DNA of 64,000 nucleotides from Candidatus Methylomirabilota bacterium (lineage in GTDB: Bacteria > Methylomirabilota > Methylomirabilia > Rokubacteriales > CSP1-6), in assembly GCA_046726415.1 (NCBI GenBank), contig JBKPAK010000103.1, forward strand, positions 15,597-79,596. Direction: 5' to 3'. A program made the position numbers and the translations under genes. The notes below the pieces were generated by a model, which did no database searches, had not been told where the DNA came from, and worked only from the letters and a program-made list of their open reading frames with translations. Below are positions 43,777-59,744 of the stretch, in pieces (the first letter of the stretch is position 1; the number at the start of each line of letters is the position of its first letter).

Positions 43777-44301
43777 TCACCGGCTCACTTCGCGCACGAG
43801 GTGTGGCAGCTCCGGAATGAGCAGCTTCTCGAGCGCCAGCCGGCACGCATTTGGCGATCCGGGCAGAGACACGAGGATGCGCCCGGCGTGGATGCCCATC
43901 TGGGCGCGCGAGAGCATGGCGGCGGCGCCCACCTCCTGGTAGGAGAGGATCCGGAACAGCTCGCCGAAGCCGGGGAGTCGCTTCTCGAGCAGAGCCTCCA
44001 CCGCCTCGAACGTCGAGTCACGCGAGGTGATTCCGGTTCCCCCGGTGAGCACCACCGCGCGCACGGCCGGGTCGGCGCAGGCTTCCCGGACGATGCGCTG
44101 GACCTCGACGGGCTCGTCGCGCACGATGGCCGAGCCGAACACCGGGTGGCCGGCCGAGACCAGCAGCTCGCGGATCAAGGCGCCGCTGGTATCGGTTTCC
44201 GGCGTCTTCGTGTCGGAAATCGTCAGGACGAAGCAGCCCACGGTCTCGGGGGCGCTGGCCTTGTGCGCGCGAGGAGTCGCGGCGGGATCGGAGGCGCTCA
44301 T
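43777..44301 (-). CDS. moaB: Molybdenum cofactor biosynthesis protein MoaB/MogA
   Basis: LTISD, TGGTG...RD.T, PGFGE, SRA, LPGSP. Confidence 0.88.
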   Translation of the reverse strand: MSASDPAATPRAHKASAPETVGCFVLTISDTKTPETDTSGALIRELLVSAGHPVFGSAIVRDEPVEVQRIVREACADPAVRAVVLTGGTGITSRDSTFEAVEALLEKRLPGFGELFRILSYQEVGAAAMLSRAQMGIHAGRILVSLPGSPNACRLALEKLLIPELPHLVREVSR

Positions 44302-45617: not shown

Positions 45618-45625
45618 GGCCGGCC

Positions 45626-46939
45626 CTAGATGCCGGCCACGAAGCGACCGGGGTTGAGGAGATTGGCCGGATCGAGCTGTGCCTTGATGCGCCGCATGAG
45701 ACGCCCGGCGGCGCCCAGGTCTTCCCACACCGACACTTCCGACTTCACGGCGAGTGGTGCCCACTCCAAGGTGGCGTGGCCACCGCCGGAATGGGCGAGA
45801 TCGCGCCACTCACCGAGCACCGAGGCCACTGATTTCAGATCCGGACGATCGCTTGTCGACCCGAGGGCGGCGGTCACCACGCCCACGCCCGCGTGCGAGG
45901 TCCAGGCCGTGCGGAATCCGCGCTGCTTGGCCACGCTCGCACCCTGCTCCATCAGCTCGGCCACGAGGGTCGGCAGGACATTGAAGCGCATGACGGCCGC
46001 GGCGGCACCCACCGAGGCGCGCGCCGGGAAGCCTCCCGGCGGAGGGCCACCGGCGAGGGGGACGATGCCATGCCCACCCAGCGGCCCGGTGACGGAGGCC
46101 AGCTCCCCGCATTGCCAGTCGACCTGCTCCGGTAAGCCGTCGAAGGCCACCACGAGCGTCGGGATCGCAACCGACGAGACGGCACGGCTCGCGTCGGCGT
46201 CCAGCAACTCCACAGCGCAGGGAATAAGGTCGGCACTCATCATGGCCCGGACGGCCGCGCTCGCATCCTTCAAGCGATCGAAGCGGACGCATACCCAGCG
46301 CTCCGCGTCGGGGACCGGCCGCAGCCTGACGGTCAGATCGACAATGACGCCGAGGGTCCCGTATGAACCGATGAAGAGCTTTGGCAGGTCGTAGCCCGCC
46401 ACGTTCTTGACCACCTTGCCGCCGCCGCGCACGATCGCGGCATCGCCGGTGACCACGGTGAGACCGATGAGCTGATCACGGGCAGTGCCGTAGAGATGGC
46501 GGCGCGGACCCGAGGCATTCGCCGCGACGACACCGCCTATGGTGGCGCGATCGGCGTCGGCCGGATCGAGCGACAGCCATTGTCCCCGCACGCGCAGTGC
46601 CGCTTGAAAGCGCGCGAGGGTCATGCCGGCTTGGACGGTGGCCGTCAGATCGCCGGGCTCATGCTCGATGATCTGGTCCAGGCGACCCAAACCGAGCACG
46701 ATGCCCATCCGGGCCGGAGGCGCGCCCACTGTGGCGGCTGTCCCTCCTCCCCACGGGATGAGGGTGCTGCCGCACTCTGCCGCGAGCGCCACCACGCTCC
46801 GCACCTCGTCCACCGACCGCGGGAATACTGCCGCATCGGGCGTCCGCCCCTCGATCACATAGGGGCACAGCTCGATCCCGGTGAGGACGTTGGTGGAGCC
46901 GACCAGGGCGCGGAGCTTTTCGATGACCGCGGGCTGCAT
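45626..46939 (-). CDS. glcE: Glycolate oxidase FAD subunit GlcE
   Basis: EPGDLTATVQAG, GGKVVKNVAGYDL, DP..LLNPGRF. Confidence 0.88.
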   Translation of the reverse strand: MQPAVIEKLRALVGSTNVLTGIELCPYVIEGRTPDAAVFPRSVDEVRSVVALAAECGSTLIPWGGGTAATVGAPPARMGIVLGLGRLDQIIEHEPGDLTATVQAGMTLARFQAALRVRGQWLSLDPADADRATIGGVVAANASGPRRHLYGTARDQLIGLTVVTGDAAIVRGGGKVVKNVAGYDLPKLFIGSYGTLGVIVDLTVRLRPVPDAERWVCVRFDRLKDASAAVRAMMSADLIPCAVELLDADASRAVSSVAIPTLVVAFDGLPEQVDWQCGELASVTGPLGGHGIVPLAGGPPPGGFPARASVGAAAAVMRFNVLPTLVAELMEQGASVAKQRGFRTAWTSHAGVGVVTAALGSTSDRPDLKSVASVLGEWRDLAHSGGGHATLEWAPLAVKSEVSVWEDLGAAGRLMRRIKAQLDPANLLNPGRFVAGI

Positions 46940-46959
46940 GAGAGCCACCGCGCCCGCGC

Positions 46960-48435
46960 CTAGAAGCGCTGGGCGAGGCCCTTCTCCTCGATGGCGTGAG
47001 GCCGGTAGGCCACGGGGCCGACCTCGATACAGGATTTTCGGGTGGGAAAGACCTTCCCCGGATTGCAGAGCCCCCGGGGATTGAACGCGTTCTTCAGTCG
47101 CTGCATCAGCTCGAGATCGGACGCCGAGAAGATGAACGGCATGAAATCGGCTTTCTCCAGACCGATGCCATGCTCCCCGGAGATCGACCCCCCCACCTCG
47201 GCGCACACCCTCATGATCTCCGCGCCGGCCGCCACGACCCGCTGCTCCTCGCCGGGCCGGCGCGGGTCGTAGAGGATATTGGGGTGCAGGTTGCCGTCGC
47301 CCGCGTGGAAGACGTTCCCCACCCGCAGCGCGTGCTCGGCGATAATCTCGTTGACTCGCCGGAGCACGTACGGCAGTCTTGTGCGCGGGATGACGCCGTC
47401 CATCACCATGTAGGCGGGGGAGAGGCGGCCATACGCCCCAAAAGCCGACTTGCGACCTTTCCAGAGAAGCTGGCGCTCGGCCTCATCCCGGGCCGTGCGG
47501 ATCTCCCGGGCGCCGACGTCCCGGCACGCCTGTACGATCCGCTCCACTTGCGCAGCCATGCCCACGGAGAGGCCGTCCAGCTCGATCAGGAGCGCAGCCG
47601 CCGCGTCGCGCGGATAACCGCACTGGAACGCGTCCTCTACGGCCTGGATCGTGAGGTGATCGATCATTTCCATCGCCGCCGGTACCAGTCCACGCGCAAT
47701 GACCGCGGAGACCGCCTCTGAGGCCCCGTTGACATCGTCGAAGATGGCCAGGACCGTCTTGACGGCCTGCGGCTTCTTGAGAATGCGAACCACGATGGCC
47801 GTGGCGATGCCGAAGGTGCCCTCGGAGCCGACGAAGACGCCGGCCAGATCGTACCCGGGCGCCTCGCGTGTCTTCCCCCCGAGCCAGACCACCTCGCCAT
47901 CAGGCATGACGACTTCGAGGCCCAAGACGTGGTTGGTGGTCACGCCGTACTTGAGCGTATGAGGCCCGCCCGAGTTGTTGGCGATGTTGCCCCCAATCGT
48001 GCAGGCCTGCTGGCTCGAGGGATCGGGCGCGTAGTAGTACCCTCGCGAACCCACGGCCCACGACAAGTGCAGGTTGACGAGTCCAGGTTGGACGACCGCG
48101 ATCTGGTTGTCGTAGTCGACCTCCAGCACGCGATTCATCCGCATCATCGAGATGACGATGCCCCCTTCCGCGGGCAAGCACCCACCGGATAGGCCGGTGC
48201 CCGCTCCTCGCGCCACGAAGGGAATCCCCTGCCGGTGAGCGAGCCGAACGACATCGGCCACCTGGGCCGTCTCGCGCGGAAATACGACGAAATCGGCCAG
48301 GGCGCGGAAGAGGGTGAGCCCATCCGATTCGTACGTCAGCAGCTCGTCTGGGTCGGCGAGAACGCCATCGCGGCCGAGGATCCCCTCCAACTCCGTCCGG
48401 AGACTGGCCTTGAGGCTGTCGGTCAGCGTGCTCAT
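46960..48435 (-). CDS. glcD: Glycolate oxidase FAD subunit GlcD
   Basis: RGAGTGLSGG, PDPSSQ, HAGDGNLHP, GEHGIG; start ATG 48435. Confidence 0.92.
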   Translation of the reverse strand: MSTLTDSLKASLRTELEGILGRDGVLADPDELLTYESDGLTLFRALADFVVFPRETAQVADVVRLAHRQGIPFVARGAGTGLSGGCLPAEGGIVISMMRMNRVLEVDYDNQIAVVQPGLVNLHLSWAVGSRGYYYAPDPSSQQACTIGGNIANNSGGPHTLKYGVTTNHVLGLEVVMPDGEVVWLGGKTREAPGYDLAGVFVGSEGTFGIATAIVVRILKKPQAVKTVLAIFDDVNGASEAVSAVIARGLVPAAMEMIDHLTIQAVEDAFQCGYPRDAAAALLIELDGLSVGMAAQVERIVQACRDVGAREIRTARDEAERQLLWKGRKSAFGAYGRLSPAYMVMDGVIPRTRLPYVLRRVNEIIAEHALRVGNVFHAGDGNLHPNILYDPRRPGEEQRVVAAGAEIMRVCAEVGGSISGEHGIGLEKADFMPFIFSASDLELMQRLKNAFNPRGLCNPGKVFPTRKSCIEVGPVAYRPHAIEEKGLAQRF

Positions 48436-48499
48436 CTGCGGGAAGTATACTCTACGGCGCGTCCTCCGGCTGAGCGAGGCCCTCGCTCCCCTCGGCCCC

Positions 48500-48886
48500 C
48501 ACTCACACGCCCGCCGAACGGTGTGGAGCATGATGCGGCGAATCAGCCCCCTAAAGGGTCGCACCAGGAGCCAGTACGCGCGGAACGTCCGCCGGGCGGC
48601 CGCCAGAATTGACCAGTGACTCCGAGAACGATCTGCCGCCCCGAATCCTCGGCCAGTCGACCGAAACCGGCGCCGATCAGGGCCTCCAGGGTCAGGTTCC
48701 GACGCGCGCTCCGATCATGGCCCGTCCGGATCCACGCCGGCAGAGACTGCAAGGCCCAGCAGTGCCTTGACCACCGGAGACCTGCCCAGATCCGAGTGCT
48801 CGCTAGATGGCGTCGGGCGGGGCAGCGATCTCGATCCAGTGGGTCTCCACGGCGTCCGGATTCGGGGCGGGTGCGTCGATCAGCAT
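48500..48886 (-). pseudogene. Decayed conserved hypothetical gene
   Basis: MLIDAPAPNPDAVETHWIEIAAPPDAI* (TAG 48803-48805), then frame-shifted DLGRSPVVKALLGL, IVLGVTGQFWRP and RRTFRAYWLLVRPFRGLIRR fragments with an internal deletion. Confidence 0.65.
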
Positions 48887-51017: not shown

Positions 51018-52115
51018 CTACAGCTCGGGGGGCCACGCCTCCAAGGTCGCGCTCGAGCTGCGGAGATCGAGCATCTCCGGCAGACTCGGCGACTGCTGGG
51101 AGAGCTTCAGGTTGGTGATGCGGGTCATGCGCTGCACGATGAGGCGAATGCGCTCGACGGCGTCGAGGGTGGGACGAATGCGATCGGTCGCCGATTCGTC
51201 GATATGGTGGGCGATGATTTCGACGTTGCCCATGATGATGGCCAGCGGATTGTTGATCTCGTGGGCCGCGGCGCTGGCCAGACGCGCCACCGACCGCAGA
51301 GACTCCTCGCGGCGCTCGGCCTCTTCGGCGCGTTTGCGCTCGGTGATGTCCTCGTGCGCCACCACCGCGCGCATGCCTCCATCGCCCTCGAAGCGCGTGA
51401 TCCGCACGGCAAACCAGCGGCGGTCGGCGCCTTGCCACTGGGAGATTTCCCCGGAGAATTCCCGCCGCACTTTGCCGAGCACGTCGCCCATGCCCATCTC
51501 GATGGCGGCCACCTCACCGCCGCGCTCCGTCTTCCACACGTCGAGATACCTGCGTCCCACCGCGCCACCGGCCGACGCGTCATCGGGGGCGAAGAACCGC
51601 TGCCAGGCGGCGTTGGCGGCAACGATGTTGCCGTCGCGATCGATGATGGCGAGCTGCACGCTCAACGAATCGAGCGCTGACTGGAGCATGCTGTCCGACG
51701 GGGCGACCACGTCTCCGACCACGCCCCGCGCCGCGTTGAGGGCGGTGATGAGCACGCCCACCAGGATGAAAATGCCGATCCTGGCCACGTGCGGGAATCC
51801 CTGCTCCAGGGGGTAGAGCGGGTGGATGAACAGAAGCTCCACGCTCACGGTCGACAGCGCGGTGGCGGCCAGACCGGGACCCGCTCCGCCCGCCCACGCA
51901 CTCACCATGATGGCCGCCAGGAACAGCGGCGCGGCAACCGGCTTTAGGAGCGGCCACAGCGCGGCCGTCAGGAGGGCAGCCGTGGCGACGCTCGCCAGAG
52001 CGAGCAGGTAGGGCAGCAGCGAACTGTATGCGCCGCCACGCTGAGTATGCCAGGAGCGCCGACGGATGAGGGCGGCCGTCGCCAAGGCCAAGTCGGGCTT
52101 GAGCCAGCTGACCAT
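51018..52115 (-). CDS. Membrane sensor: DUF4118-like TM + PAS + HisKA, no HATPase domain; start uncertain
   Basis: TM segment W.GGAGPGL.AT; PAS (IIDRDGNIVAANAAW...HEDITERKRAEE); AHEINNPL; ends about 70 aa later. Confidence 0.75.
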   Translation of the reverse strand: MVSWLKPDLALATAALIRRRSWHTQRGGAYSSLLPYLLALASVATAALLTAALWPLLKPVAAPLFLAAIMVSAWAGGAGPGLAATALSTVSVELLFIHPLYPLEQGFPHVARIGIFILVGVLITALNAARGVVGDVVAPSDSMLQSALDSLSVQLAIIDRDGNIVAANAAWQRFFAPDDASAGGAVGRRYLDVWKTERGGEVAAIEMGMGDVLGKVRREFSGEISQWQGADRRWFAVRITRFEGDGGMRAVVAHEDITERKRAEEAERREESLRSVARLASAAAHEINNPLAIIMGNVEIIAHHIDESATDRIRPTLDAVERIRLIVQRMTRITNLKLSQQSPSLPEMLDLRSSSATLEAWPPEL

Positions 52116-52197
52116 GAGGGACGTCGGCGAGAATACCGGGACTACGGGAAGGACGCAATGGCCGCAGCCGGCTGTCCGCCGCACCACCACCACCAGG

Positions 52198-52235
52198 GTC
52201 GCACCCCACCCGACCATCAGTGTCGCACCCCACCC
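52198..52235 (+). repeat. 14-bp direct repeat with 24-nt period
   Basis: GTCGCACCCCACCC at 52198-52211 and 52222-52235. Confidence 0.85.
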
Positions 52236-52269
52236 CACGAGCAAGTGTGTGAGTTCATGAGAGTCTGCC

Positions 52270-52286
52270 TTGGCATTCGATTTGCG
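52270..52286 (+). promoter_or_regulatory. Putative sigma54 -24/-12 promoter
   Basis: TTGGCATTCGATTTGCG: GG-N10-GC with TGGCA and TTGC. Confidence 0.6.
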
Positions 52287-52298
52287 GTGAGGGAGGGC

Positions 52299-52616
52299 AT
52301 GATGGGGAAGGCTCCCGTGCACACGCCCTCGAGATCGGAGACCTGGCGCGACGCATTCCCCGGAATCTCTGGCGACGTGATCGCAAGGCTGAAGGCCCGA
52401 GGCATCCGCTCCGTGGCCGGCGCGGTACGCGCCGTCCGTCTGGCGGGTGATCGCAGTGACCCGGTCGCGCGCGCTCTTCCCCAGATGCCGTTCGACAACG
52501 TCCTCGACCGTGAGGCCGCTCACCTGTTCTTGATGCTGCAGGTCGCCGCCGACACGCCGCCGAATCCCTCGTCGGGCGCGGCAAGACGGCCTCGCCGCCG
52601 CGCGCCCGAGTGCTGA
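52299..52616 (+). CDS. Hypothetical protein
   Basis: GGGAGG + ATG downstream of the sigma54-like site; no recognised family. Confidence 0.4.
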   Translation: MMGKAPVHTPSRSETWRDAFPGISGDVIARLKARGIRSVAGAVRAVRLAGDRSDPVARALPQMPFDNVLDREAAHLFLMLQVAADTPPNPSSGAARRPRRRAPEC

Positions 52617-52646
52617 TCGCCAGCCACCAACCTCGCCATCGGGAAA

Positions 52647-52717
52647 TCGAAGAGCGCCCCGGCTTTACCGGGGCGCTCTGAGCGTCTGGGGTGAGGGGGG
52701 ACATATCGGGGGCCCCC
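52647..52717 (-). repeat. Two-stem REP-like element (reverse orientation)
   Basis: Perfect 12-bp stem AGAGCGCCCCGG/CCGGGGCGCTCT (52651-52679); on the minus strand it has the GACGCTC linker and TCGA end seen at 21226-21300. Confidence 0.75.
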
Positions 52718-52792
52718 GTCACTTGACGCGCAGGTACATGGTCGAGGGACTCACCGCAGGCGGCGTGAAGGGCTAACCGTCCACGGGCGGTT

Positions 52793-53071
52793 TCACCCTG
52801 GGGGGCGGCGGCGTTGCCGTAGTTCCTGGTGGATTTTCAGGTCGTGAAGGCGCATCACGAACGCGACGGCGGCAGCGGCGAGCCCGAGAGCTACCACGAC
52901 CACGAGGGTAAAGTAGTCGGACGCATCCTGTAGGCCACGGGTTCCTAGATACGTCACGATGATGGCCGATATGAGAACCACGCCTAGCAGCAGTCCCCGG
53001 TAGAGCCAGCGCTCGACCAGAAGGCGCCCCAGCGCCTCGTCGTCCAGTTCGCGCCAGTCTCGATCGCGCAT
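52793..53071 (-). CDS. Small two-TM hypothetical membrane protein
   Basis: 92 aa with two hydrophobic segments and a basic C-terminus. Confidence 0.6.
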   Translation of the reverse strand: MRDRDWRELDDEALGRLLVERWLYRGLLLGVVLISAIIVTYLGTRGLQDASDYFTLVVVVALGLAAAAVAFVMRLHDLKIHQELRQRRRPPG

Positions 53072-53086
53072 TGCGTTAGCCGGGAT

Positions 53087-53115
53087 TTGCAGTGGGCACG
53101 CTTGGTGTATACCAT
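53087..53115 (+). promoter_or_regulatory. Sigma70-type promoter for the UxxC-cstA-arsA operon
   Basis: TTGCAG(53087)-17 nt-TACCAT(53110). Confidence 0.55.
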
Positions 53116-53148
53116 CACGCCGACCGATCTTCGCTCGGGGGGTGAGTC

Positions 53149-53541
53149 ATGGCGCCACTGTCCCTCGACCGACCGATCCGTGTGGACGTCATCACCTATG
53201 TCCCCACGCGCTTCAACCACTGAAAGCACTGCGAAGTGACCTGGCAGGTCATGGGCCTTCGCCAGAAAGTGCAGCGGGAACTCCTGGAGACCGGCCTACC
53301 CGAGGATCTCAAGCAGGAGTTCCACGCGCTCTCCGAATGGGCGGGGGCGCTACCCGCTAAGTTCGGCGACCGCGTGCGCGTGCGGCTGATCGACGCGGTG
53401 TCGCTCGAGGGTTTCGTCAAGTCGCTGCTCGGGCGCTTCTGGCGATACCCCGCTTTCTCGGTCCGCGGACACCGCTACGTCGGCTCCGACTTCTCGCGCG
53501 TCGACGACCTCATTTCCACCCAGCTCGCCAAGGGGGGGTGA
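53149..53541 (+). CDS. Predicted thioredoxin-like selenoprotein, UxxC motif (TGA 53221-53223 = Sec25), 130 aa
   Basis: GGGGGTGA SD + ATG 53149; MAPLSLDRPIRVDVITYVPTRFNH-U-KHCEV in frame with ORF 53236-53541; RYPAF cis-Pro-like loop; SECIS-like hairpin after TGA. Confidence 0.8.
53224..53272 (+). promoter_or_regulatory. Putative bacterial SECIS element
   Basis: TGACCT/AGGTCA apical stem with GGC loop 19 nt after TGA; lower stems GCGAAG/CTTCGC and GCACT/AGTGC. Confidence 0.7.
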
Positions 53542-53601
53542 TGCCGACTCTTAACGGGCCAATAGTCCCCGTTCGGTCGAATTGCACGCGAAGGAGGAGG
53601 A

Positions 53602-55398
53602 ATGAACACACTCCTGGCCGTCATCATCGGGGCGCTCACCGTGTACCTCGTGTACACGCGGTACGCCCGGCGAATCGATCGCAACGTGATCCAGTCCGAT
53701 CCCAAGCGGGCCACGCCGGCCACCCTCTACATGGACGGCGTCGACTTCATGCCCACCAACAAGGCCATTCTCTTCGGCTACCACTTCAAGTCGATCGCCG
53801 CCGCCGGCCCCATCGTGGGGGCCATCGTGGCGGCGTCGCTGTGGGGCTGGCTGCCGGCCCTGATCTGGCTCGTGCTCGGCGTGTCCTTCATCGGCTGGGC
53901 CAGCGACTACAGCGGCATCGTGATCTCGGTGCGCAACGACGGCAACAGCCTCTCGGGGGTCGCTCATCGTCTCGTCTCCCCCCGGTCGCGCACCATCCTG
54001 TTCATGTTCATCTTCTTCTACCTGCTGGTGGGGGCCAGCGGCTTCATCAGCATCCTGGCCAGCGTGATGGAGGCGCAGCCCCGCACGCACGTCGGCATCA
54101 TCGTCCTCACGGCCATGGGGCTTCTGCTCGGGCAGATGCTCTATCGCTGGCGCACGGGACTGGTGGGCGCCACCGTGCTCACCGTGGGCCTGACCTTCAT
54201 CGCCATCCTGTCCGGTCCGCTCACGGAGGGTATCTCTCAGGGGTTCAACACCGCCCTCAACAACCTCACGGGGGGAGCACCGCTCGTCACCTACTTCGAC
54301 CCCACCGCGGCGGGCTTCAAGGGTGCCGACGCCCAGATCATGCCCAGCCTGCTCTTCTGGGCTCTGGCCATCAGCGCCTTTTGCTACGCCGGTTCTGTGC
54401 TTCCGATCTGGCGTATGGCCCAGCCCGTTGTCTACGTGGCGTTCTGGGTGAGCGCCACCGCCATCGTGCTCGGACTCGTGGGGGCGGGCCTGGCCACGTT
54501 CGTGAAGCCCGAGGTCGCCCAGTTCGTCATCCCGGCCTTCCGAGGCTGGAATCCACAGCTCGGGCCATCGGGAATGATGCCGCTTTGGCCGATGCTGTTC
54601 GTCACCATCGCCTGCGGCGCTATCTCCGGCTGGCACGCGCTCTTCGGTTCAGTCGGCACTGCCCGCCAAATCGAAAACGAGGCCGACATGCTGCCGGTCG
54701 GCGGAGGCTCGATGCTCTGCGAGTTCCTGCTCGGACTCCTGGCCCTCCTGTCGGTCGCCGTCGGCTCCAAGGGGGCACCAGTAGCCGCCTTCGCCACGGG
54801 GCTGGGTGGCTTCATCAGCGTCTTCGGGGTACCGATCCAGTACGCGACGTCACTGGCCTTCGCGGCCTTCATCGTCATCGTGCTGGTGGTGGCGCAGCTC
54901 CTGTTCCGGGTCATGCGGGTGACCTTGAGCGAGTGGCTGGGTGACGTCATCCCCCCCCTCCGCAGCCAGCATCTGTCGTCGTTCGTCTGCGTCGCTCTGG
55001 CCGTGGTGGTAGTCCTGACCGGCACCTGGATCTACATCTGGCAGCTGCTGGGCGGCGCCAACCAGCTCATGGCGGCGCTGGCCCTTTTGCTGGTCACGGT
55101 CTGGCTCGCCTCAGTGGGGAAGAACTGGCTGTACGCGGGGCTTCCCGCGCTCTTCATGTACGTGACCACGGTCGTCTCCCTCTTCGTCACCGCCTACAAC
55201 CTCTATGCGAACGTCTACCGGATCAACGTGGCGGAGGGACGGCTGGCGCCGGTGGTCGGCTCTGGGCTTCTCATCACCATTGCCATGCTGCTGGTGGTGG
55301 CCGCCCTCTTCATCGGCTACGACGGGCTCCGGGCTTTCATGCGCTACCGCAAGCGGCCGATGGCGGCGGCGCCTACGCCAGCCCCGGCGCGAGCCTAG
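53602..55398 (+). CDS. cstA: Carbon starvation protein A (CstA) family transporter
   Basis: TPA...DGVDFMPT, FGYHFKSIAAAGPIVG, LWPMLFVTIACGAISGWH, IWQLLGGANQL; strong SD. Confidence 0.92.
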   Translation: MNTLLAVIIGALTVYLVYTRYARRIDRNVIQSDPKRATPATLYMDGVDFMPTNKAILFGYHFKSIAAAGPIVGAIVAASLWGWLPALIWLVLGVSFIGWASDYSGIVISVRNDGNSLSGVAHRLVSPRSRTILFMFIFFYLLVGASGFISILASVMEAQPRTHVGIIVLTAMGLLLGQMLYRWRTGLVGATVLTVGLTFIAILSGPLTEGISQGFNTALNNLTGGAPLVTYFDPTAAGFKGADAQIMPSLLFWALAISAFCYAGSVLPIWRMAQPVVYVAFWVSATAIVLGLVGAGLATFVKPEVAQFVIPAFRGWNPQLGPSGMMPLWPMLFVTIACGAISGWHALFGSVGTARQIENEADMLPVGGGSMLCEFLLGLLALLSVAVGSKGAPVAAFATGLGGFISVFGVPIQYATSLAFAAFIVIVLVVAQLLFRVMRVTLSEWLGDVIPPLRSQHLSSFVCVALAVVVVLTGTWIYIWQLLGGANQLMAALALLLVTVWLASVGKNWLYAGLPALFMYVTTVVSLFVTAYNLYANVYRINVAEGRLAPVVGSGLLITIAMLLVVAALFIGYDGLRAFMRYRKRPMAAAPTPAPARA

Positions 55399-55421
55399 CG
55401 GGGAGGGGATCGAATCGTGCC

Positions 55422-55452
55422 GACGCGCGGGGGCTACGGCCCCCCGCGCGTC
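55422..55452 (+). other. Intercistronic 12-bp hairpin with C-TACG-G loop
   Basis: GACGCGCGGGGG / CCCCCGCGCGTC. Confidence 0.8.
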
Positions 55453-55512
55453 CGAGAGGTGTCGGCGCGAGCGCGTGCAGAGTTGCCGCGAGCGCGGACG
55501 GAAAAGGTGACG

Positions 55513-55806
55513 ATGACGGGCCGAATCGCCGCACAGTGGACGGACCTTCGCGAGGCATTCGCCCGCTTCGTCTACGGCCTGACGGGGTACGAGTTCGCCC
55601 GCCACGCCGTGGAGATGCGGCATCAGCTGGAGGCGGTGTTCATGATCGTGACCTTCGGCGATCTGGTGGGCGTGCCCATCCTGCCGCCCGTCTATTCGCT
55701 CCGGCTGCTGCCACACGTGGTGCCCGAGGTGGCGACGTGGAAGCGGCACCTCGCTCGCCGCAAGGAGTTCTGGGAGAAGGAAGAGTACGACCTCCACGGT
55801 CTCTGA
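55513..55806 (+). CDS. Small CstA/ArsA-associated protein 1
   Basis: 97 aa; FMIVTFGDLVGVPILPPVYSLRLLP motif shared with the next gene. Confidence 0.8.
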   Translation: MTGRIAAQWTDLREAFARFVYGLTGYEFARHAVEMRHQLEAVFMIVTFGDLVGVPILPPVYSLRLLPHVVPEVATWKRHLARRKEFWEKEEYDLHGL

Positions 55807-55829
55807 GCCGATGGAGCGAAGGGGACGCG

Positions 55830-56108
55830 ATGGCTGACGACCCGAAAGCGAAGAAGCGCGGAGGTCTGCTGGGCGCCTTCAGGGACATCGTTTACGGCAT
55901 GGCATCGCACGAGATGACCCGCCACGCCGTCCGCTCCCGCGCTAGCATGGAGCACCTGTTCATCCTCATCACCATGGGCGACCTGCTGGGCATTCCCATC
56001 CTGCCGCCCTACTACTCGCTCCGGCTCCTGCCGTACGTGACCCCGCAGATCGCCGGCTGGAAGCGCCGCATGCTGCGCGAGCGCGACGTCACCGACATCC
56101 TCGGATGA
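55830..56108 (+). CDS. Small CstA/ArsA-associated protein 2 (paralog)
   Basis: 92 aa; FILITMGDLLGIPILPPYYSLRLLP. Confidence 0.8.
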   Translation: MADDPKAKKRGGLLGAFRDIVYGMASHEMTRHAVRSRASMEHLFILITMGDLLGIPILPPYYSLRLLPYVTPQIAGWKRRMLRERDVTDILG

Positions 56109-56140
56109 CGCGGATCAGTCGTCCGCGCTAAGGAGATTCC

Positions 56141-57115
56141 ATGTCGCTGCGCGAGGCGTTCGAGAGCCAGCCCGACCGGCGCTACGTGATGTTCGGCGGC
56201 AAAGGCGGGCTCGGCAAGACCACCCTCTCCGCCACCAGCGCTTTCTGGCTGGCCAGCCAGGGCAAGCGCGTGCTGCTCTTCTCCGTCGATCCGCAGGCGA
56301 GCCTATCCGACATCTTTCAGCGCGACATCTTCGGCCAGGGCCCGGTTCCCATCATGGAGAACCTCTGGGCCCAGGAAGTCGACGCCGACCGGCGCATCCG
56401 CGAATACCAGGAGGAAATTCGCAAGAAGATCCTCGACATGTACGGCTTCGAGCGCGTCCCCGAGGAGATCGACAACTATATCAGCGCCGCCTCGGCCGAG
56501 CCCGCCATGGAGGAGAGCGCCATCTTCGACGCCGTGGTCGACATCATCGTGCAGGGGGACTACGACTACTACATCTACGACCTCGTCCCCCTCGGCCACG
56601 CCCTTTACTATCTCTCCATGGCCAAGGTCTACGACGAGTGGATCAACAAGATCACCAAGCTCCGCGAGGAGATGCGCCAGTACGACCAGGTGGCGGCCAC
56701 CATGCGCCGCGAGCAGCAGCTCGAACAGGACCAGATCCTGGGCGAGTTGACCTATATCAAGGAACGGATCAACGCCTCGTCCAGGATCCTGACCGACAAG
56801 GCGCGCACGGCTTTCTTCTTCGTGGTGGTCCCCGAGGAGATGATCATCCTCGACACCCGCAAAGCCGCCGAGCTGTTCGCGCGCTTCGATGTCCCCATCT
56901 CGGGCTACATCGTGAACCGAATACTCCCGCCGGAGCTAGGTCAGGCCGGCATCCCCGTCTACCTCAAGAATCGCCTGGCCATGCAGCACAAGTACCTCGA
57001 TGAGATCCGGGGGGCCTTCGGCACGGAGATCCGGGCCTACGTTCCGGAGATGGAACGCGATGTCACGGGACTCGCCATGATCGAACGCCTCGCCCGGCGA
57101 CTCTTCGAGAGCTAG
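56141..57115 (+). CDS. ArsA/Get3 family ATPase 1
   Basis: GKGGLGKTT, SVDPQASL, DLVPLGH; no Cys; AAGGAG SD. Confidence 0.9.
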   Translation: MSLREAFESQPDRRYVMFGGKGGLGKTTLSATSAFWLASQGKRVLLFSVDPQASLSDIFQRDIFGQGPVPIMENLWAQEVDADRRIREYQEEIRKKILDMYGFERVPEEIDNYISAASAEPAMEESAIFDAVVDIIVQGDYDYYIYDLVPLGHALYYLSMAKVYDEWINKITKLREEMRQYDQVAATMRREQQLEQDQILGELTYIKERINASSRILTDKARTAFFFVVVPEEMIILDTRKAAELFARFDVPISGYIVNRILPPELGQAGIPVYLKNRLAMQHKYLDEIRGAFGTEIRAYVPEMERDVTGLAMIERLARRLFES

Positions 57116-57125
57116 GGACCCCACC

Positions 57126-58115
57126 ATGGGGACGGAGCTGGAGATCGCCCGGTCAATGCAGCGATATCTCGCCGAGCACGCCGGTCTCAAGTATCACTTC
57201 TTCGGCGGCAAGGGCGGGGTAGGCAAGACGGCCATGGCCGGGACCACCGCGCTCTGGCTCGCCCGGCAAGGACGCCGCACGTTGCTGGCCTCGACCAATC
57301 CTGTGCACAGCTTGTCCGGGCTCCTCGGCCAGGACGTCTCGGAGGCTCCCACCGAGGTGCGCGGCGTGTCCGGGCTCCACGCCTACGAGATCGACACCCG
57401 GGAGACCATCGAGCGCTCCAAGCGGGAGATCCGGGAGAAGATCCAGTGGTTCCTGAAGTTCGCCGACATCTCCACCAAGGCCGACGAGTTCGTGGAGTCG
57501 GCCACCATGAACCCGGCCTTCGAGGAGTCGGCCATGTTCGAGAACATGGTCGACCTGATGCTGAAGCGCGAGTACGAAGCGTACGTCTTCGACACCGCGC
57601 CCACCGCCAACGCCCGGCGCCTACTCGGCATGTCCAAGGTCTACGCGCTGTGGGTGGAGAAGATGCTCAAGTCTCGCCAGGAGGCCCGCACCCTGCGCGA
57701 GGTGCTCTCCTTCACCAAGAAGAAGGAAGACGACCCCTTGCTCGAGTATCTGCTGCAGTTCCGCACCCGCATGGGCCAGGCGCGCCAGCTCCTCACGGAC
57801 GAGGGCCAGACCGCCTTCTTCTTCGTGACCTTGCCCGAGGCCCTTCCCATCGCCGTGATCACGCGCTTCATCGGATGGTTCCACGAGTTCGGCATCCCGG
57901 TGGGCGGCGTCATCGTCAACATGGTGCTCGACCGCGAGGCGCTGGGGACGGATCTCCCCGAGTTCGTCCTCAATCGCCTCGCCATGCAGGCGGAGCACAT
58001 GCGGACGATCCGCGAGAAGTTCGACGAATCGGTGCGCGCGGTCATCCCGCTGTTCGATCAGGAGGTACGCGGCGTGGCCATGCTCGACCACGCCGCCGCC
58101 GCGCTCTTCGCCTGA
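57126..58115 (+). CDS. ArsA/Get3 family ATPase 2
   Basis: GKGGVGKT, STNPVHSL, DTAPTAN; no Cys. Confidence 0.9.
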   Translation: MGTELEIARSMQRYLAEHAGLKYHFFGGKGGVGKTAMAGTTALWLARQGRRTLLASTNPVHSLSGLLGQDVSEAPTEVRGVSGLHAYEIDTRETIERSKREIREKIQWFLKFADISTKADEFVESATMNPAFEESAMFENMVDLMLKREYEAYVFDTAPTANARRLLGMSKVYALWVEKMLKSRQEARTLREVLSFTKKKEDDPLLEYLLQFRTRMGQARQLLTDEGQTAFFFVTLPEALPIAVITRFIGWFHEFGIPVGGVIVNMVLDREALGTDLPEFVLNRLAMQAEHMRTIREKFDESVRAVIPLFDQEVRGVAMLDHAAAALFA

Positions 58116-58453
58116 CGGCGCGCCGGCGCGAGCGGGCTCTGACGGTGGCCGGGCACGCTGGTCCCTTTGGTCCCTGATGCCACGAAGACCGTGCGGGCGG
58201 CTGCCGAGCAGGCATCTCGACGTGCCGACCGCGACTCCTGCCATCGCAAGCGGCCACCGCACGCGGTCGTGCCGCGTCGCGAGGCAGTCGCCCTCCGCGC
58301 GCACGGCCTCGATACCGCTCGATTCCCCTGTCGTCGTCACGCTTGCCCCTGCGGCACGCCTCCATTGGCACGCTTGGTGTTGTTGCTTACTGAATGTGTC
58401 GGCCGGTGCCGCCATTTGTGCCTCACCAGCAAGCACCCGGGAGCCGGCCGCTG

Positions 58454-58815
58454 ATGCTCAAGCTCGAGTCCATGGCATCGACCGCGACCCACTGCCCATA
58501 CTGGGACTCGCGCCGCCGACGGCCCTCGGTGCCAATCTCGTCTACACCGTTCCGTCGGATCGGCGGGCGCAGCTGATCTACCTCCGGGCGGGTAACACTG
58601 CGCCGGAGCTCGTGTACGTCGAGCTGCTGCGCAACGGCAAGGTCATGCGGCTCTTCCGGGTCGGCGCCCCGTGGCACGTCCATGTGCCACTGGCCGTGGT
58701 GGAGGATCTCTTCGCCGCCACGCGGCTCGAGGTCAGGCTCGGGGCGCCGCGCGATCTGCGCGCTGGGGCCGAGTTGTTCGCCATCACCATGTTCGGTGAC
58801 GAGCCGTACGGCAAC
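58454..58815 (+). pseudogene. Mosaic remnant of nitrate/nitrite assimilation genes
   Basis: YTVPSDRRAQLIYLRAGN...MRLF.VGA...HVPLAVVEDL resembles the small protein of assimilatory nitrate reductase clusters; ELFAITMFGDEPYGN resembles the NirB N-terminal region. Confidence 0.5.
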
Positions 58816-58958
58816 GATGCGGGTCATGAAGGACGGCCGGCTGAAGTCGATCGTCGCCTGCTATTTCCGACACACTACCGACGCGGGGTCTCGGCGCGCA
58901 CACCCGCGCCGGGCCTGCTCACCACGCAAGCCTTCGACATATAATCGCGCACCACGAG

Positions 58959-59744
58959 ATGGCATTGACCACGCGGACGCTCGAGGGGAAGGCCGCGATC
59001 ATTACCGGCGCGGCGACCGGGATCGGCCGCGCGACCGCACGGCTCTTCGCCGGCGCCGGCGCGCGCCTCACCTTGGCCGACGTCCGGGAAACGGAGCTGG
59101 AGGCGACGGTCGCCGAGGTGCGGGCGGCCGGCGGCGCAGCCTCCGCGGTCGTCGCCGATCTCGCCCGTCCGGAGGACTGCGCGGCCGTGGTGGATGCGGC
59201 GGTGCGCGCCTTCGGGCGCCTCGACGTCGTCTTCAACAATGCCGGCGTGGGCACTCTGGTCGTGGGCGGGACGGTGGAGACGATCCCGCTCGAGCGATGG
59301 GACCTCGCCCAGGACGTGAACGTGCGGGCGATCTACCTCGTGAGCCAGGCCGCGGTGCCCCATCTCCGCGCCGCCGGCGGCGGGGCCATCGTCAACACGG
59401 CATCGGTCGCCGCCTTCCGGGGATCGCGCGCGCGGCCGAGCCACGCGTATGCGGCCTCGAAGGGCGCCGTCCTCGCGCTCACCCGCGCGATGGCCGCCAG
59501 CTATGGGGCCGACGGCATCCGGGTGAACGCGATCTGCCCGGGGACGATCCGCACTCGCCTGACCGCCGACATCATCGAGGGCGCCGAGCGCGACGCCGCC
59601 GCGGGTCGAGGCATCCCGCTCGGGCGCGTGGGGGAGCCCGAGGACATCGCCAGCTGCGCGCTCTTCCTCGCCTCGGACGACTCCGCCTGGATCACCGGAA
59701 TCGAGATCGTCGTCGACGGAGGAGCGCGCGCGGCATCGGTCTAG
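58959..59744 (+). CDS. Short-chain dehydrogenase/reductase
   Basis: TGAATGIG, NNAG, YAASK, VNAICPG. Confidence 0.95.
   Translation: MALTTRTLEGKAAIITGAATGIGRATARLFAGAGARLTLADVRETELEATVAEVRAAGGAASAVVADLARPEDCAAVVDAAVRAFGRLDVVFNNAGVGTLVVGGTVETIPLERWDLAQDVNVRAIYLVSQAAVPHLRAAGGGAIVNTASVAAFRGSRARPSHAYAASKGAVLALTRAMAASYGADGIRVNAICPGTIRTRLTADIIEGAERDAAAGRGIPLGRVGEPEDIASCALFLASDDSAWITGIEIVVDGGARAASV

Follow-up and report, generated by a model that had tools for sequence, protein, structure and literature searches.

The locus described here encodes a transport module of the widespread cstA-cstX-arsA-homologue type, and its first gene specifies TrxL, a small thioredoxin-fold protein with a (U/C)xxC motif in which the first residue is, on good evidence, selenocysteine. 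The role proposed for TrxL is that of a dedicated cytosolic selenol/thiol partner of the CstA permease, a reading to which a probability of roughly 0.6 can be given. The transporter core itself is known. Castillo and Saier (Int J Microbiol 2010:187373, PMC2963123) described, from genomes, cstA-cstX-(cstY)-arsA-homologue operons that are not arsenic-related, with a CstX of ~90 aa, sometimes present as two paralogs, and single-domain ArsA homologues of ~330 aa, sometimes forming adjacent pairs at 25–31% identity. Those cst operons contain no ars genes, and an ATP-coupled CstA was proposed by the authors. The same CstA, CstX and single-domain ArsA homologues are found here, so the combination, which the original prediction did not recognize as a characterized system, has been published in its core since 2010. 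The new element is the (U/C)xxC TrxL family beside cstA: in the parts of the 2010 paper drawn on here, thioredoxin and related redox proteins are mentioned as new determinants for ars operons only, whereas the present (U/C)xxC gene belongs to a cst operon. A divergent small membrane-type gene in Rokubacteria is a further addition to the operons of that comparison, as is an Asp-to-Asn asymmetry within the ATPase pair. The observations of the original prediction were confirmed, and its interpretation was partly supported.

The locus lies in a window of 64,000 nucleotides, which is the whole stretch of DNA analysed. Six genes are located on the + strand at 53149–58115 (Table 1), as given by the open reading frame calls with one in-frame TGA read as U, and the intergenic gaps of 60, 114, 23, 32 and 10 nt bear out the co-directional, tightly spaced unit that had been predicted. 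Its beginning had been set at 53087, which is the TTG of an open reading frame in another frame, and the selenoprotein starts at ATG 53149. The genes had also been placed behind one promoter; the sigma-70 scan of 52600–59000 returned 0 sites, and the promoter of the operon is a presumed one. The co-transcription of the six genes is suggested by their spacing and conserved order. The RNA-library contigs over the operon are short pieces only. All Rokubacterial loci for which enough sequence is available show this gene order, which excludes a chance arrangement. The host is described as a soil bacterium, and a homopolymer at 53137 shows a one-base length difference in two DNA runs.

Table 1. Features of the locus, with positions counted from the first nucleotide of the window.
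Feature	Position	Strand	Description
up_TM, divergent	52793..53071	-	Open reading frame; 92 aa, two hydrophobic stretches, 0 Cys
Divergent intergenic region, presumed promoter region	53072..53148		77 bp; G-rich Shine-Dalgarno-like run ahead of ATG 53149
TrxL-Sec	53149..53541	+	130 aa, probable thioredoxin fold, translated with TGA=U; active site H24-U25-K26-H27-C28
In-frame TGA read as probable selenocysteine, codon 25	53221..53223	+	Conserved TGA, Cys in homologues, Sec machinery
SECIS-like hairpin	53236..53252	+	GUGACCU-GGC-AGGUCAU; predicted consensus fold
CstA-family permease	53602..55398	+	598 aa; PF02554 at 1e-98
CstX1	55513..55806	+	97 aa, Cys-free; subtype with C-terminal ...EEYDLHGL
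CstX2	55830..56108	+	92 aa, Cys-free; subtype with C-terminal ...RERDVTDILG
ArsA1	56141..57115	+	324 aa; single-domain Get3/ArsA-like ATPase
ArsA2	57126..58115	+	329 aa; single-domain Get3/ArsA-like ATPase

The divergent gene up_TM is located upstream in 7/7 loci searched by tblastn and in 17/19 Rokubacterial loci of a larger survey, in which two loci (L040 and L058) begin too late to show it and the TrxL copy L057 lies elsewhere. Its conservation as a neighbour is confined to the Rokubacterial arrangement, where operons without TrxL retain it; no match was found in the NC10-like and other loci or in the Chloroflexi-like loci. The one Pfam match of up_TM, to NrsF at 1.8e-3, is weak and does not reach the cut-off. 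The neighbour scan outside the operon took open reading frames of at least 200 aa, and between 44 and 64 kb these encode GlcD/F-like oxidases, a histidinol dehydrogenase, a methyltransferase, a PAS/HisKA protein, an SDR and a luciferase-like monooxygenase.

The TrxL frame contains one in-frame TGA, at codon 25 (...TRFNH-U-KHCE...), and the gene is complete only if this codon is read through, as the original prediction had it. Reading of the TGA as selenocysteine is well supported by sequence comparison. The genome encodes the Sec machinery, with selA, selB and selD at 592, 374 and 336 bits, all above the cut-offs, and tRNA-Sec at 71 bits (cut-off 47); selB, selA and tRNA-Sec form a cluster. 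The selD gene itself has one TGA. The TGA of TrxL is kept in 9/9 matches from 8 genomes and in all 20 Rokubacterial copies with the site on the contig (19 copies and L057). DNA contigs of two sequencing runs (X1 record 1 and X2 record 17) span it without differences; this agreement, together with the 20 Rokubacterial copies, shows that the TGA is not an assembly error. Two homologues (P0008 and P0023) have Cys at the Sec column, and CxxC is found in 117 of the 118 full-length homologues. Orthologues at 55–67% identity cover the residues ahead of the TGA, and the 24 codons before it are conserved as protein. TrxL can therefore be predicted as a bacterial selenoprotein from the UGA in a conserved coding sequence, the Cys homologues, the hairpin and the Sec genes. 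Public gene calls begin after the TGA, most of the matches are 96–109 aa long, and TGA is also the ordinary stop codon in four genes of the operon, in line with a true stop, in which case the real product would be the 96–101-aa C-terminal frame of the gene callers or the gene would be decaying. Such a product, however, would be devoid of strand 1 and of the entire active site, and the protein-level conservation upstream of the TGA, the Cys of the homologues at its position, the Sec machinery and the positioned hairpin make a true stop extremely improbable.

The predicted hairpin, consisting of a 7-bp stem and a 3-nt loop, begins 12 nt past the UGA codon. Its pairs are kept in the consensus fold of 7 orthologues, with no compensatory change inside the Rokubacterial clade. 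In the Sec forms of a distant clade a 7-bp stem (CGUUCCU/GGGAGCG) with a GGA loop lies one base further on, so that the two Sec clades share the same architecture with 4/7 pairs changed on both sides, a comparison which counts effectively as one event. Folding of 6 Cys forms gave no such hairpin at that place, and the Rfam search returned no match. These comparisons offer limited support for a SECIS element, which stays a predicted one.

TrxL is assigned to the thioredoxin fold, with (U/C)xxC following strand 1 and a conserved Pro preceding strand 3, on modest structural evidence. The models (pLDDT 65 and 71) have the order beta-alpha-beta-alpha-beta-beta-alpha (E-H-E-H-E-E-H); a long helical insertion separates the active site from strand 2, and the active-site stretch 21–40 is modelled at pLDDT <50. 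In three fold searches the top 50 rows were almost all thioredoxin-fold proteins, at weak scores (Foldseek best E 3.8e-3; VIA Z up to 7.4, a range that the tool calls common). The family alignment shows C25 (U in this protein) without exception, and C28 and P101 with few exceptions or none; the Pro is presumably in the cis conformation. The motif reads H-(U/C)-x-H-C, with His on both sides in most members and the second His replaced by S, R, N, Y or Q in some. Searches against Pfam-A and NCBIfam release 20 gave 0 families at E<=0.01, none of the curated Trx, Grx, NrdH, DsbA, Thioredoxin_3, SaoT and HUIPC models matched at that threshold, and the profile search of PDB sequences gave nothing relevant.

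Thioredoxin-fold UxxC selenoproteins catalogued in a review table comprise Trx PF00085, Grx PF00462, SaoT NF040730 and the HUIPC-motif family NF047660 (PMC13188914, Table 1). TrxL resembles them as a small predicted thioredoxin fold with Sec first in UxxC, and it shares with the HUIPC family a His ahead of Sec. It differs from them in the lack of any model match at E<=0.01, in the long helical insertion and in its fixed genomic partner, cstA. The terms 'CstA' and 'carbon starvation' are absent from the main text of that review.

The original prediction expected the (U/C)xxC gene to be conserved beside cstA. TrxL adjoins cstA in 32/33 assessable loci, which show three gene orders at 28–40% identity: it lies upstream of cstA in 17/18 assessable Rokubacterial loci, downstream in 7/7 loci of NC10-like and other clades, and is linked to cstA in 8/8 loci with room upstream in the Chloroflexi-like clade. 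In two loci (L062 and L046) the stop and start codons overlap or stand 3 nt apart. TrxL thus travels with CstA across several lineages. Within the phylum it occurs in 38/251 genomes, 37 of which have CstA; TrxL and CstX are found together in 32 genomes, TrxL only in 6 and CstX only in 13 (n=251, the genomes being kin and not independent). The ESM Atlas clusters nearest TrxL are auto-named glutaredoxin family and carry no Pfam family. These names, the thioredoxin fold with CxxC and the absence of TrxL from the operon in some genomes would suit a general glutaredoxin-like housekeeping reductase whose adjacency to cstA is functionally meaningless. A housekeeping gene, however, would not track one transporter in so small a share of genomes or stay beside it in three gene orders at such divergence, and this reading is very improbable.

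The proposed partner of TrxL is CstA, not the ATPases, since in one complete genome (G077) a CstA-TrxL pair lies 1.3 Mb away from CstX-ArsA1-ArsA2. Three operons are without TrxL: two have the arrangement up_TM|CstA-X1-X2-A1-A2, with only ~170–190 bp at the place of TrxL (G193 and G218), and one has CstA-X-A1-A2 (G074). TrxL is thus an accessory and dispensable component. All three genomes retain selA. The single TrxL copy away from cstA (L057, in G193) stands beside a helicase-like gene and has Arg for the resolving Cys. Of the proposal that the selenoprotein is part of an ATPase-CstA complex, the linkage to cstA stood, whereas membership alongside the ATPases did not, as TrxL tracks CstA rather than the ATPases and can be missing.

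The permease matches PF02554 with 331.9 bits (gathering score 27) in two stretches. It is the only CstA in the genome (G000). Its score against the E. coli CstA equivalog NF011590 is 146.5, far under the cut-off of 1188, which places it in a different subfamily from E. coli CstA. The sequence search found no solved relative. The Cys residues are 261, 338 (in TIACGAISG), 373 and 463; among 17 TrxL-linked CstA proteins Cys338 is invariant and Cys261 nearly invariant. The original prediction named the Cys of ACGAISG as a possible target of the selenoprotein. No CstA cysteine tracks the presence of TrxL, the ACGAISG Cys and Cys261 being kept with or without it.

The two small proteins, paralogs at ~50% identity by tblastn cross-matches, correspond by size (~90 aa) and by position between cstA and the ATPases to the CstX of Castillo and Saier and to PF25952. 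At E<=0.001 a search with CstX2 gave 5455 relatives, of which the 120 listed all bear the precomputed label PF25952; clustering at 50% identity left 392 representatives, among which the CstX1 subtype was also seen. The cory-CC-star model NF041419 scored 25.2 bits for CstX1 and 34.2 bits for CstX2 (cut-off 80), so these Cys-free proteins are distant relatives only. The absence of Cys from both small proteins and both ATPases, already noted from the sequence, was confirmed by count (0 Cys in each). It had also been suggested that the presence of TrxL anticorrelates with C-terminal CC or CU motifs of the small proteins. In the best 150 of the 392 CstX representatives C-terminal CC occurs in 0 and C-terminal C in 3, yet most CstX lineages are without TrxL (5455 CstX against 431 TrxL clusters, from searches that differ in reach), and the anticorrelation does not hold as a strict rule.

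Both ATPases fall into the TRC40/GET3/ArsA family. PF02374 matches ArsA1 at 7.8e-68 and ArsA2 at 2e-63, TIGR00345 (TRC40/GET3/ArsA) scores 225.4 and 211.6 bits (cut-off 135), and the deviant Walker A motifs, GGKGGLGKT and GGKGGVGKT, do not vary. By sequence, both ATPases are closest to archaeal Get3 proteins (3ug6/3ug7 and 3zq6; E 1e-51 to 1e-58), matched over the full length including the helical subdomain. In Get3 and ArsA the Switch I Asp is catalytic. ArsA1 keeps this Asp (VDPQASLSD) and has DLVPLGH at Switch II, conserved in 20/20 sequences. ArsA2 has Asn for Asp (TNPVHSLSG) and DTAPTAN for DTAPTGH, invariant in 20/20 sequences; in the alignment, where 3ug6 and 3zq6 have 'stdpahsl' and 'dtaptgh', it reads 'stnpvhsl' and 'dtaptan', and at the archaeal CxxC it has no Cys. 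ArsA2 is therefore predicted to be nucleotide-binding but probably poor in hydrolysis. Unlike archaeal Get3, the two diverged paralogs would form a heterodimer, and their genes are encoded with a transporter. The BagA and BagB models (NF053622, NF053621) reached 51–52 bits against 400 and 34–37 bits against 521, with PDB 6bs3 at only 1e-7, and this assignment was rejected.

An arsenic pump was likewise rejected. In E. coli ArsA three Cys serve as As(III)/Sb(III) ligands. Among the 20 sequences ArsA2 has 0 Cys and ArsA1 0 or 1. The pump ATPase model TIGR04291 has a cut-off of 650 bits, and the two proteins, single-domain ones and not ~580-aa fused halves, reach 104.3 and 104.9; no ars family (arsB/acr3, arsD, arsR, arsC) was found among the open reading frames scanned in 44–64 kb. 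The original prediction that the locus does not confer arsenic resistance thus holds, in agreement with the account of cst operons in PMC2963123.

The ArsD-ArsA-ArsB arsenite efflux system combines a thioredoxin-fold accessory, a two-halved ArsA P-loop ATPase (structures 1f48 and 9nbl) and a secondary permease in one operon. ArsD has a vicinal Cys pair and a third Cys near the N terminus. The present locus resembles this system in pairing a small thioredoxin-fold protein with an ArsA-type ATPase and a secondary permease, and it differs in that the halves are separate Cys-free genes and the carrier is CstA, not ArsB or Acr3. By this likeness TrxL could be a metallochaperone, its Sec, Cys and flanking His binding a thiophilic metal(loid) that would be passed to the ATPases for ATP-driven movement through CstA. 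The parts list fits such a relay, as do the His residues flanking (U/C) in most members and the disorder of the modelled active-site loop, which a metal site might show. The Cys-free ATPases, however, have no thiol acceptor site, TrxL remains beside CstA where the ATPases lie 1.3 Mb off, the second His varies, and no metal-resistance genes were seen among the scanned neighbours in 44–64 kb. TrxL also has no match to ArsD PF06953 at E<=0.01, its redox residues being the (U/C)xxC pair only; ArsD chains are not among the listed fold-search matches, with which a shared fold is still compatible. The relay is therefore quite improbable.

The closeness to Get3 raises another reading, a biogenesis module: the hydrophobic CstX (or CstA) would be the client of the Get3-like pair, which, instead of energising transport, would act as its chaperone or as an insertase-targeting factor, and also the client of TrxL, an oxidoreductase in folding or quality control. 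Get3 targets tail-anchored proteins, whose C-terminal membrane helix it captures in an ATP-dependent step, and the nearest solved chains of ArsA1 are the archaeal Get3 structures 3ug6 (8.3e-58) and 3zq6 (1.4e-55), with E. coli ArsA 1f48 at only 1.6e-28. The CstX-ArsA1-ArsA2 cluster can also exist without an adjoining cstA, and CstX is described as ~90 aa with one membrane segment (PMC2963123). This segment, judged by eye from the translation, is central and not C-terminal, however, and CstX offers no Cys as an oxidoreductase target. The Zn-bridging CxxC of the Get3 dimer interface is absent from the ATPases, which speaks against a Get3 targeting factor, and Castillo and Saier (PMC2963123) describe co-evolution of CstX with the ArsA homologues and CstA. 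The biogenesis module appears unlikely.

With TrxL as the CstA partner, the module may work as follows. The secondary permease CstA would operate with the two small adaptor-like CstX paralogs, and ArsA1 and ArsA2 would form an obligately asymmetric Get3/ArsA-like heterodimer with the catalytic Asp in ArsA1 only; the ATPase pair and CstX might gate or energise transport. TrxL would have been gained by the module in Methylomirabilota (Rokubacteria and NC10-like) and in the Chloroflexi-like clade, the UGA at 53221 being recoded by SelB and tRNA-Sec with the aid of the hairpin. At the cytoplasmic face of CstA, the U25 selenolate would be the attacking nucleophile and C28 the resolving residue. TrxL might bind CstA there, and its task might be to capture or reduce what is imported or else to maintain a competent transporter.

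Such a service may be analogous to that of the unrelated Cys-Cys or Cys-Sec tailed proteins for enterobacterial CstA and BtsT. The background of the original prediction on YbdD/YjiX-type proteins has been published: Cys-Cys forms the C terminus of E. coli YbdD and YjiX, and Cys-Sec that of the Campylobacter DUF466 proteins (KCU-star), all of them beside CstA-type transporters (PMC5847655, bioRxiv 10.1101/2022.07.06.499078, and the review table of PMC13188914), and CstA-dependent pyruvate uptake requires YbdD (PMC5847655, bioRxiv 10.1101/2022.07.06.499078). The likeness lies in a CstA-family transporter with a small cytosolic protein bearing two redox-type residues, which are adjacent in YbdD/YjiX. 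The proteins are unrelated in sequence and fold, YbdD/YjiX having ~65 aa with C-terminal CC or CU and TrxL 130 aa in a predicted thioredoxin fold, its U-x-x-C standing close to the N terminus. Unlike E. coli CstA-YbdD and BtsT-YjiX, the present transporter subfamily comes with CstX and ATPases. The DUF466 (YbdD/YjiX) model PF04328 has no match in this genome, and among the 251 phylum genomes it occurs in one, beside a canonical CstA, in a genome without TrxL and CstX.

The gene of TrxL, the 130-aa protein with the H-(U/C)-x-x-C site, stays beside cstA in all three clades in which it was found. In the Rokubacteria, the group of the window itself, every locus of sufficient length shows a divergent up_TM gene followed by TrxL(Sec)-CstA-CstX1-CstX2-ArsA1-ArsA2, and CstA comes directly after TrxL in 17 loci; one further contig ends too early. 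Another lineage of that class, together with two others, has the order reversed, and there TrxL lies beside cstA in 7/7 loci of several arrangements. In loci L059, L060, L061 and L065, CstA precedes either the tandem TrxL(Cys)-TrxL(Sec) or just one TrxL, Cys or Sec, and no ATPase or CstX gene was found within the stretches fetched there. L063 reads CstA-TrxL(Cys)-CstX-ArsA1-ArsA2, L064 has a divergent arrangement, and L062 reads TrxL(Cys)-CstA-CstX1-CstX2-ArsA1-ArsA2. The last belongs to G226, where the Rokubacterial gene order goes with a Cys-form TrxL (LHCQHCE), as in no other genome of the window's family. The third clade, Chloroflexi-like and sampled from metagenomes by a scan with the narrow alignment A5 that reached this clade only, carries CstA-TrxL(Cys)-[Cys-less TrxL paralog]-CstX-ArsA1-ArsA2, with CstA upstream in 8/8 loci with room and CstX downstream in 14/15.

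Coordinates of the operon, its neighbours and the additional TrxL and selenium genes
Feature	Sequence	Coordinates	Strand	Description
Upstream genes of the operon	window	44298-48564	-	
Upstream genes of the operon	window	51018-52523	-	
up_TM	window	52793-53071	-	92 aa, Cys-free, two hydrophobic stretches; 77 bp from TrxL, divergent
TrxL frame	window	53149-53541	+	130 codons, one internal TGA (codon 25)
CstA	window	53602-55398	+	598 aa; PF02554 at 1e-98 (Pfam)
CstX1	window	55513-55806	+	97 aa, small paralog
CstX2	window	55830-56108	+	92 aa, small paralog
ArsA1	window	56141-57115	+	324 aa, ATPase
ArsA2	window	57126-58115	+	329 aa, ATPase
ORF	window	58177-58944		255 aa, without family; between ArsA2 and SDR
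SDR	window	58959-59744		840 bp past ArsA2
Tandem TrxL, Rokubacteria	L050	8465-8842		two Sec copies, second H-U-R-R-C
Tandem TrxL, Rokubacteria	L053	8465-8842		two Sec copies, second H-U-R-R-C
Tandem TrxL, NC10-like	L059	4537-5350		Cys copy HCxHCQ, then Sec copy YH-U-PHCE
Tandem TrxL, NC10-like	L061	11710-12512		Cys copy HCxHCQ, then Sec copy YH-U-PHCE
Orphan TrxL paralog	L057	7980-8375		FH-U-RH-R-E; Sec kept, Arg for the resolving Cys
Third TrxL paralog, Chloroflexi-like	L073	6660-7025		degenerate, CxxC-less; between Cys-form TrxL and CstX
Fragment of CxxC-less TrxL paralog	L069	745-867		
selD of the window's genome (L011)	C223	11994-12938		one in-frame TGA

The anatomy of these operons and the linkage of their genes are observed directly. 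Across 251 genomes of the phylum, which are relatives, so that the counts are descriptive and not a test, TrxL was found in 38, CstX in 45 and CstA in 61; TrxL and CstX occur together in 32, TrxL only in six and CstX only in 13, and CstA is present in 37 of the 38 TrxL genomes. In the genome G077, a single contig, the CstA-TrxL pair lies 1.3 Mb away from the CstX-ArsA1-ArsA2 cluster; the modules are therefore separable, and TrxL belongs with CstA. It was also considered that TrxL is a housekeeping glutaredoxin whose position beside cstA is coincidental; the recurrent linkage argues against this. Tandem duplication of TrxL is frequent. The neighbours of the orphan paralog of L057 (genome G193) are a VanZ-like membrane gene and a large helicase-like one; the TrxL-less cstA operon of that genome lies far away.

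TrxL is an accessory component. The genomes G193 and G218 have up_TM divergent from CstA-CstX1-CstX2-ArsA1-ArsA2, with only ~170-190 bp at the place of TrxL, and G074 has CstA-CstX-ArsA1-ArsA2 without it. Loss of TrxL as the result of the loss of the Sec trait is ruled out for these genomes, all with selA; among five genomes checked, G226 (89% complete) is the sole case in which selA was not found. CstX is far commoner than TrxL (5455 vs 431 clusters, from searches of different reach). The up_TM gene, to which no family could be assigned, is retained in all Rokubacterial loci with room, TrxL-less operons included, and is absent in the other two clades. The suggestion that TrxL acts on one specific cysteine of CstA gained no support, because CstA retains Cys261 and the Cys338 of TIACGAISG whether TrxL is present or not. 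A target cysteine exclusive to TrxL-linked CstA was thus rejected, and L062 has TrxL beside a CstA without Cys261.

The first gene was originally placed from 53087, a TTG that belongs to an ORF in another frame; its true start is the ATG at 53149. With the TGA translated as U, the frame reads ...IRVDVITYVPTRFNH-U-KHCEVTWQ.... That this TGA is a true stop codon was considered, and the Sec machinery, the conservation of the TGA, the Cys forms and a hairpin identify the window's TrxL, as far as sequence can tell, as a selenoprotein. The genome is 98% complete and carries selB, selA and tRNA-Sec together on one contig, as well as selD. A TrxL homologue occurs in 8/61 related genomes, where 9/9 matches have one in-frame TGA with the protein sequence conserved on both sides. 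In the species-representative collection (19 loci), His-TGA-x-x-Cys-Glu was found in 19 copies; the L057 copy also has the TGA, and the L058 copy begins past the site. Cys forms are exemplified by the database proteins P0008 (HCRHC) and P0023 (HCQHC), and a profile search gave CxxC at the Sec site in 117/118 full-length relatives, preceded by His in 113.

The hairpin, GUGACCU-GGC-AGGUCAU, begins 12 nt past the UGA codon; seven orthologues share it, with 0/14 compensatory pairs among the Rokubacteria. The Sec forms of a distant clade (33-42% identity) have a hairpin of equal size that lies one base later and has the loop GGA; its stem CGUUCCU/GGGAGCG is changed on both sides in 4/7 pairs relative to that of the window. 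No such hairpin was present at that place in six folded Cys-form genes. Folded singly, the sequences give unremarkable z-scores (-0.9 to -2.3), and the search of Rfam gave no SECIS or other family, only a chance miRNA match (E 1.3). DNA contigs of two independent sequencing runs cover the TGA with 0 differences. TrxL is evidently missed by gene callers; most of its 157 database relatives are 96-109 aa long and start past the TGA.

Two side observations concern the same genes. The selD of the window's genome has one in-frame TGA, and therefore the selenophosphate synthetase is itself a selenoprotein there. The G homopolymers at window positions 53137, just before the TrxL start, and 53532, seven bases before its stop, are one base shorter in two DNA runs; the shorter form at 53532 would alter the last TrxL residues, and the database twin P0003 does end in ...KGGDAGS.

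By fold and motif, TrxL is a predicted thioredoxin-fold UxxC selenoprotein. Two AlphaFold models (pLDDT 65 and 71) have the order strand-helix-strand-helix-strand-strand-helix, with a long helical insertion past the active site and a poorly modelled active-site stretch (residues 21-40). The matches of the fold searches, by Foldseek and independently of it, are almost all thioredoxin-fold, with modest scores (best E 3.8e-3, Z up to 7.4), and include thioredoxins, PDI domains, NrdH, glutaredoxins, SelW and KaiB. The invariant or near-invariant positions are H24, U/C25, C28, P51, D82, G88, P101 and G112. TrxL lies outside every curated sequence family tested, with 0 models of Pfam-A and NCBIfam at E<=0.01, and a profile search of PDB sequences gave chance Rab matches only. 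The 120 relatives listed have no Pfam label and are all named 'hypothetical protein'; the nearest ESM Atlas clusters, mostly from Chloroflexota, are auto-named 'glutaredoxin family protein' and share no Pfam family. The families consulted in the table of the 2026 review of prokaryotic selenoproteins (PMC13188914) are each tied to a Pfam or NCBIfam model, and none of these models matches TrxL; 'CstA' and 'carbon starvation' are absent from the main text of the review.

The remainder of the operon belongs to a published class. According to the accessible sections of Castillo & Saier 2010 (PMC2963123), cstA occurs with arsA homologues in 26 cases, and 24 of these also have a ~90-aa 'CstX', to which that paper alone gives one membrane segment. 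The ATPases are single-domain proteins of ~330 aa, sometimes as two adjacent paralogs, and those sections place ars genes in none of the cases; it is proposed there that CstA is energised by the ATPase and that CstX is a linker. A full-text literature search for 'CstX' found this paper only. The combination, at first thought unrecognised, has thus had its cstA-cstX-arsA core in print since 2010, and what is new is the TrxL family and its partnership with cstA, of which the literature searched gave no account.

The original prediction that the locus is not for arsenic resistance holds, since the operon came out negative on every membership test for a true ArsA pump, and its count of Cys was right, with 0 in both ATPases and both small proteins. 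An ArsD-like metal relay by TrxL is weakened on two sides: the ATPases are Cys-free, and TrxL stays with CstA. Both ATPases fall into the TRC40/GET3/ArsA subfamily TIGR00345 (225 and 212 bits, cut-off 135; NCBIfam). Their closest solved relatives are archaeal Get3 (E 1e-51 to 1e-58), with weaker matches to ArsA (~1e-28) and BagAB (1e-7). A Get3-style role in biogenesis was considered on this account; archaeal Get3-type proteins have a CxxC, whereas ArsA1 and ArsA2 are without it.

The Switch I Asp has a catalytic role in Get3 and ArsA. ArsA1 keeps it (VDPQASLSD), whereas ArsA2 has Asn in its place (TNPVHSLSG) and AN instead of GH in Switch II, substitutions that are invariant in 20/20 sequences from three clades and that the residue-level alignment to 3ug6 and 3zq6 confirmed. 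ArsA1 and ArsA2 hence appear to form an obligate, asymmetric heterodimer in which one site is degenerate. CstX1 and CstX2 show a distant relationship to the 'cory-CC-star' family (25 and 34 bits, cut-off 80) and represent two subtypes, ending in ...HLHGL and ...RERDLTDxxx, of which the operon has one each. A fusion of a CstX2-type and a CstX1-type unit in one chain (database protein P0244, 163 aa) suggests that the two may act as a pair.

A comparison with other CstA systems places TrxL in context. In the accessible parts of PMC5847655 / bioRxiv 10.1101/2022.07.06.499078, E. coli YbdD and YjiX have Cys-Cys C-termini and Campylobacter DUF466 proteins Cys-Sec C-termini, and CstA-dependent pyruvate uptake requires YbdD for a reason left unexplained there. 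Common to these systems are a CstA-type permease and a small cytosolic protein with two adjacent redox-type residues. The window's genome has one CstA and no DUF466; among the 251 phylum genomes, DUF466 occurs in one, beside a canonical CstA, and that genome is without TrxL and CstX. Because of the recurrent theme of two redox residues and this mutual absence, TrxL is most likely a non-homologous replacement of the DUF466-type partner.

The reading of TrxL as a cytosolic selenol/thiol partner of CstA is given a probability of about 0.6 as a whole. Its chemistry, substrate and transport direction are what we infer: TrxL, as a cytosolic (U/C)xxC protein, would dock on CstA, its selenolate would attack and Cys28 would resolve; TrxL would then either process the cargo or keep the CstA carrier active, and CstX and the ATPase pair would gate or energise the transport. 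A bolder extension, which we regard as improbable, is that the CstA family in general needs a cytosolic partner with two close thiol or selenol groups, supplied at least three times from unrelated scaffolds, with the Get3-like pair as a second, separable control layer. YbdD/YjiX (DUF466) would contribute its CC/CU tail, the corynebacterial relative of CstX its CC tail and TrxL its UxxC thioredoxin fold. If this were true, transport by the CstA family would intrinsically include a so far unrecognised step that depends on a thiol or selenol: cargo would be captured covalently or reduced, or a gate would be redox-controlled.

Permeases of the CstA type are widespread among bacteria and archaea, their working is poorly understood, and a sequence search found no solved CstA-type structure. 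A second, unrelated redox-type partner that tracks cstA through three gene orders, with Sec in many lineages, offers a handle on the partner requirement. TrxL is bigger and foldable, U25 and C28 can be mutated, and mixed selenenyl-sulfide intermediates can be trapped. With TrxL comes a further selenoprotein family, cut short by gene callers, that was found neither in curated models nor in the accessible part of the 2026 catalogue (PMC13188914). The putative natural Get3/ArsA-like heterodimer would be useful for studying the coupling between ATPases of this class and their membrane partners.

The six genes on the + strand are separated by 60, 114, 23, 32 and 10 nt (ORF listing and coordinate check). 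The single promoter originally proposed for them was not recovered, as a sigma-70 scan gave 0 promoter-like sites, and 3 terminator-like sites are not above the shuffled-sequence level. Short contigs from the metatranscriptome X20 match cstA, one at 53606-53752 without any difference and one at 54086-54321 with 3 differences, and those from X19, whose RNA nature is a guess, match TrxL (53312-53462) and CstX2 with ArsA1 (55952-56257); because DNA carry-over is possible and none adequately bridges two genes, these contigs are not evidence of co-transcription.

In two clades an additional small CstX-like gene recurs within a few kb of ArsA1-ArsA2, in most cases with a short-chain dehydrogenase gene after it (L068, L071, L073, L074, L076, L078, L081 and L083; in L078 the small gene only). 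The window has the SDR and no third CstX; the SDRs share only 28-38% mutual identity, and their orthology is thus uncertain. An upstream DUF4118-PAS-HisKA protein has no histidine-kinase ATPase domain in Pfam at E<=1e-5. Three upstream genes, encoding two FAD-linked oxidases and a CCG/4Fe-4S protein, resemble glycolate/D-lactate oxidase subunits.
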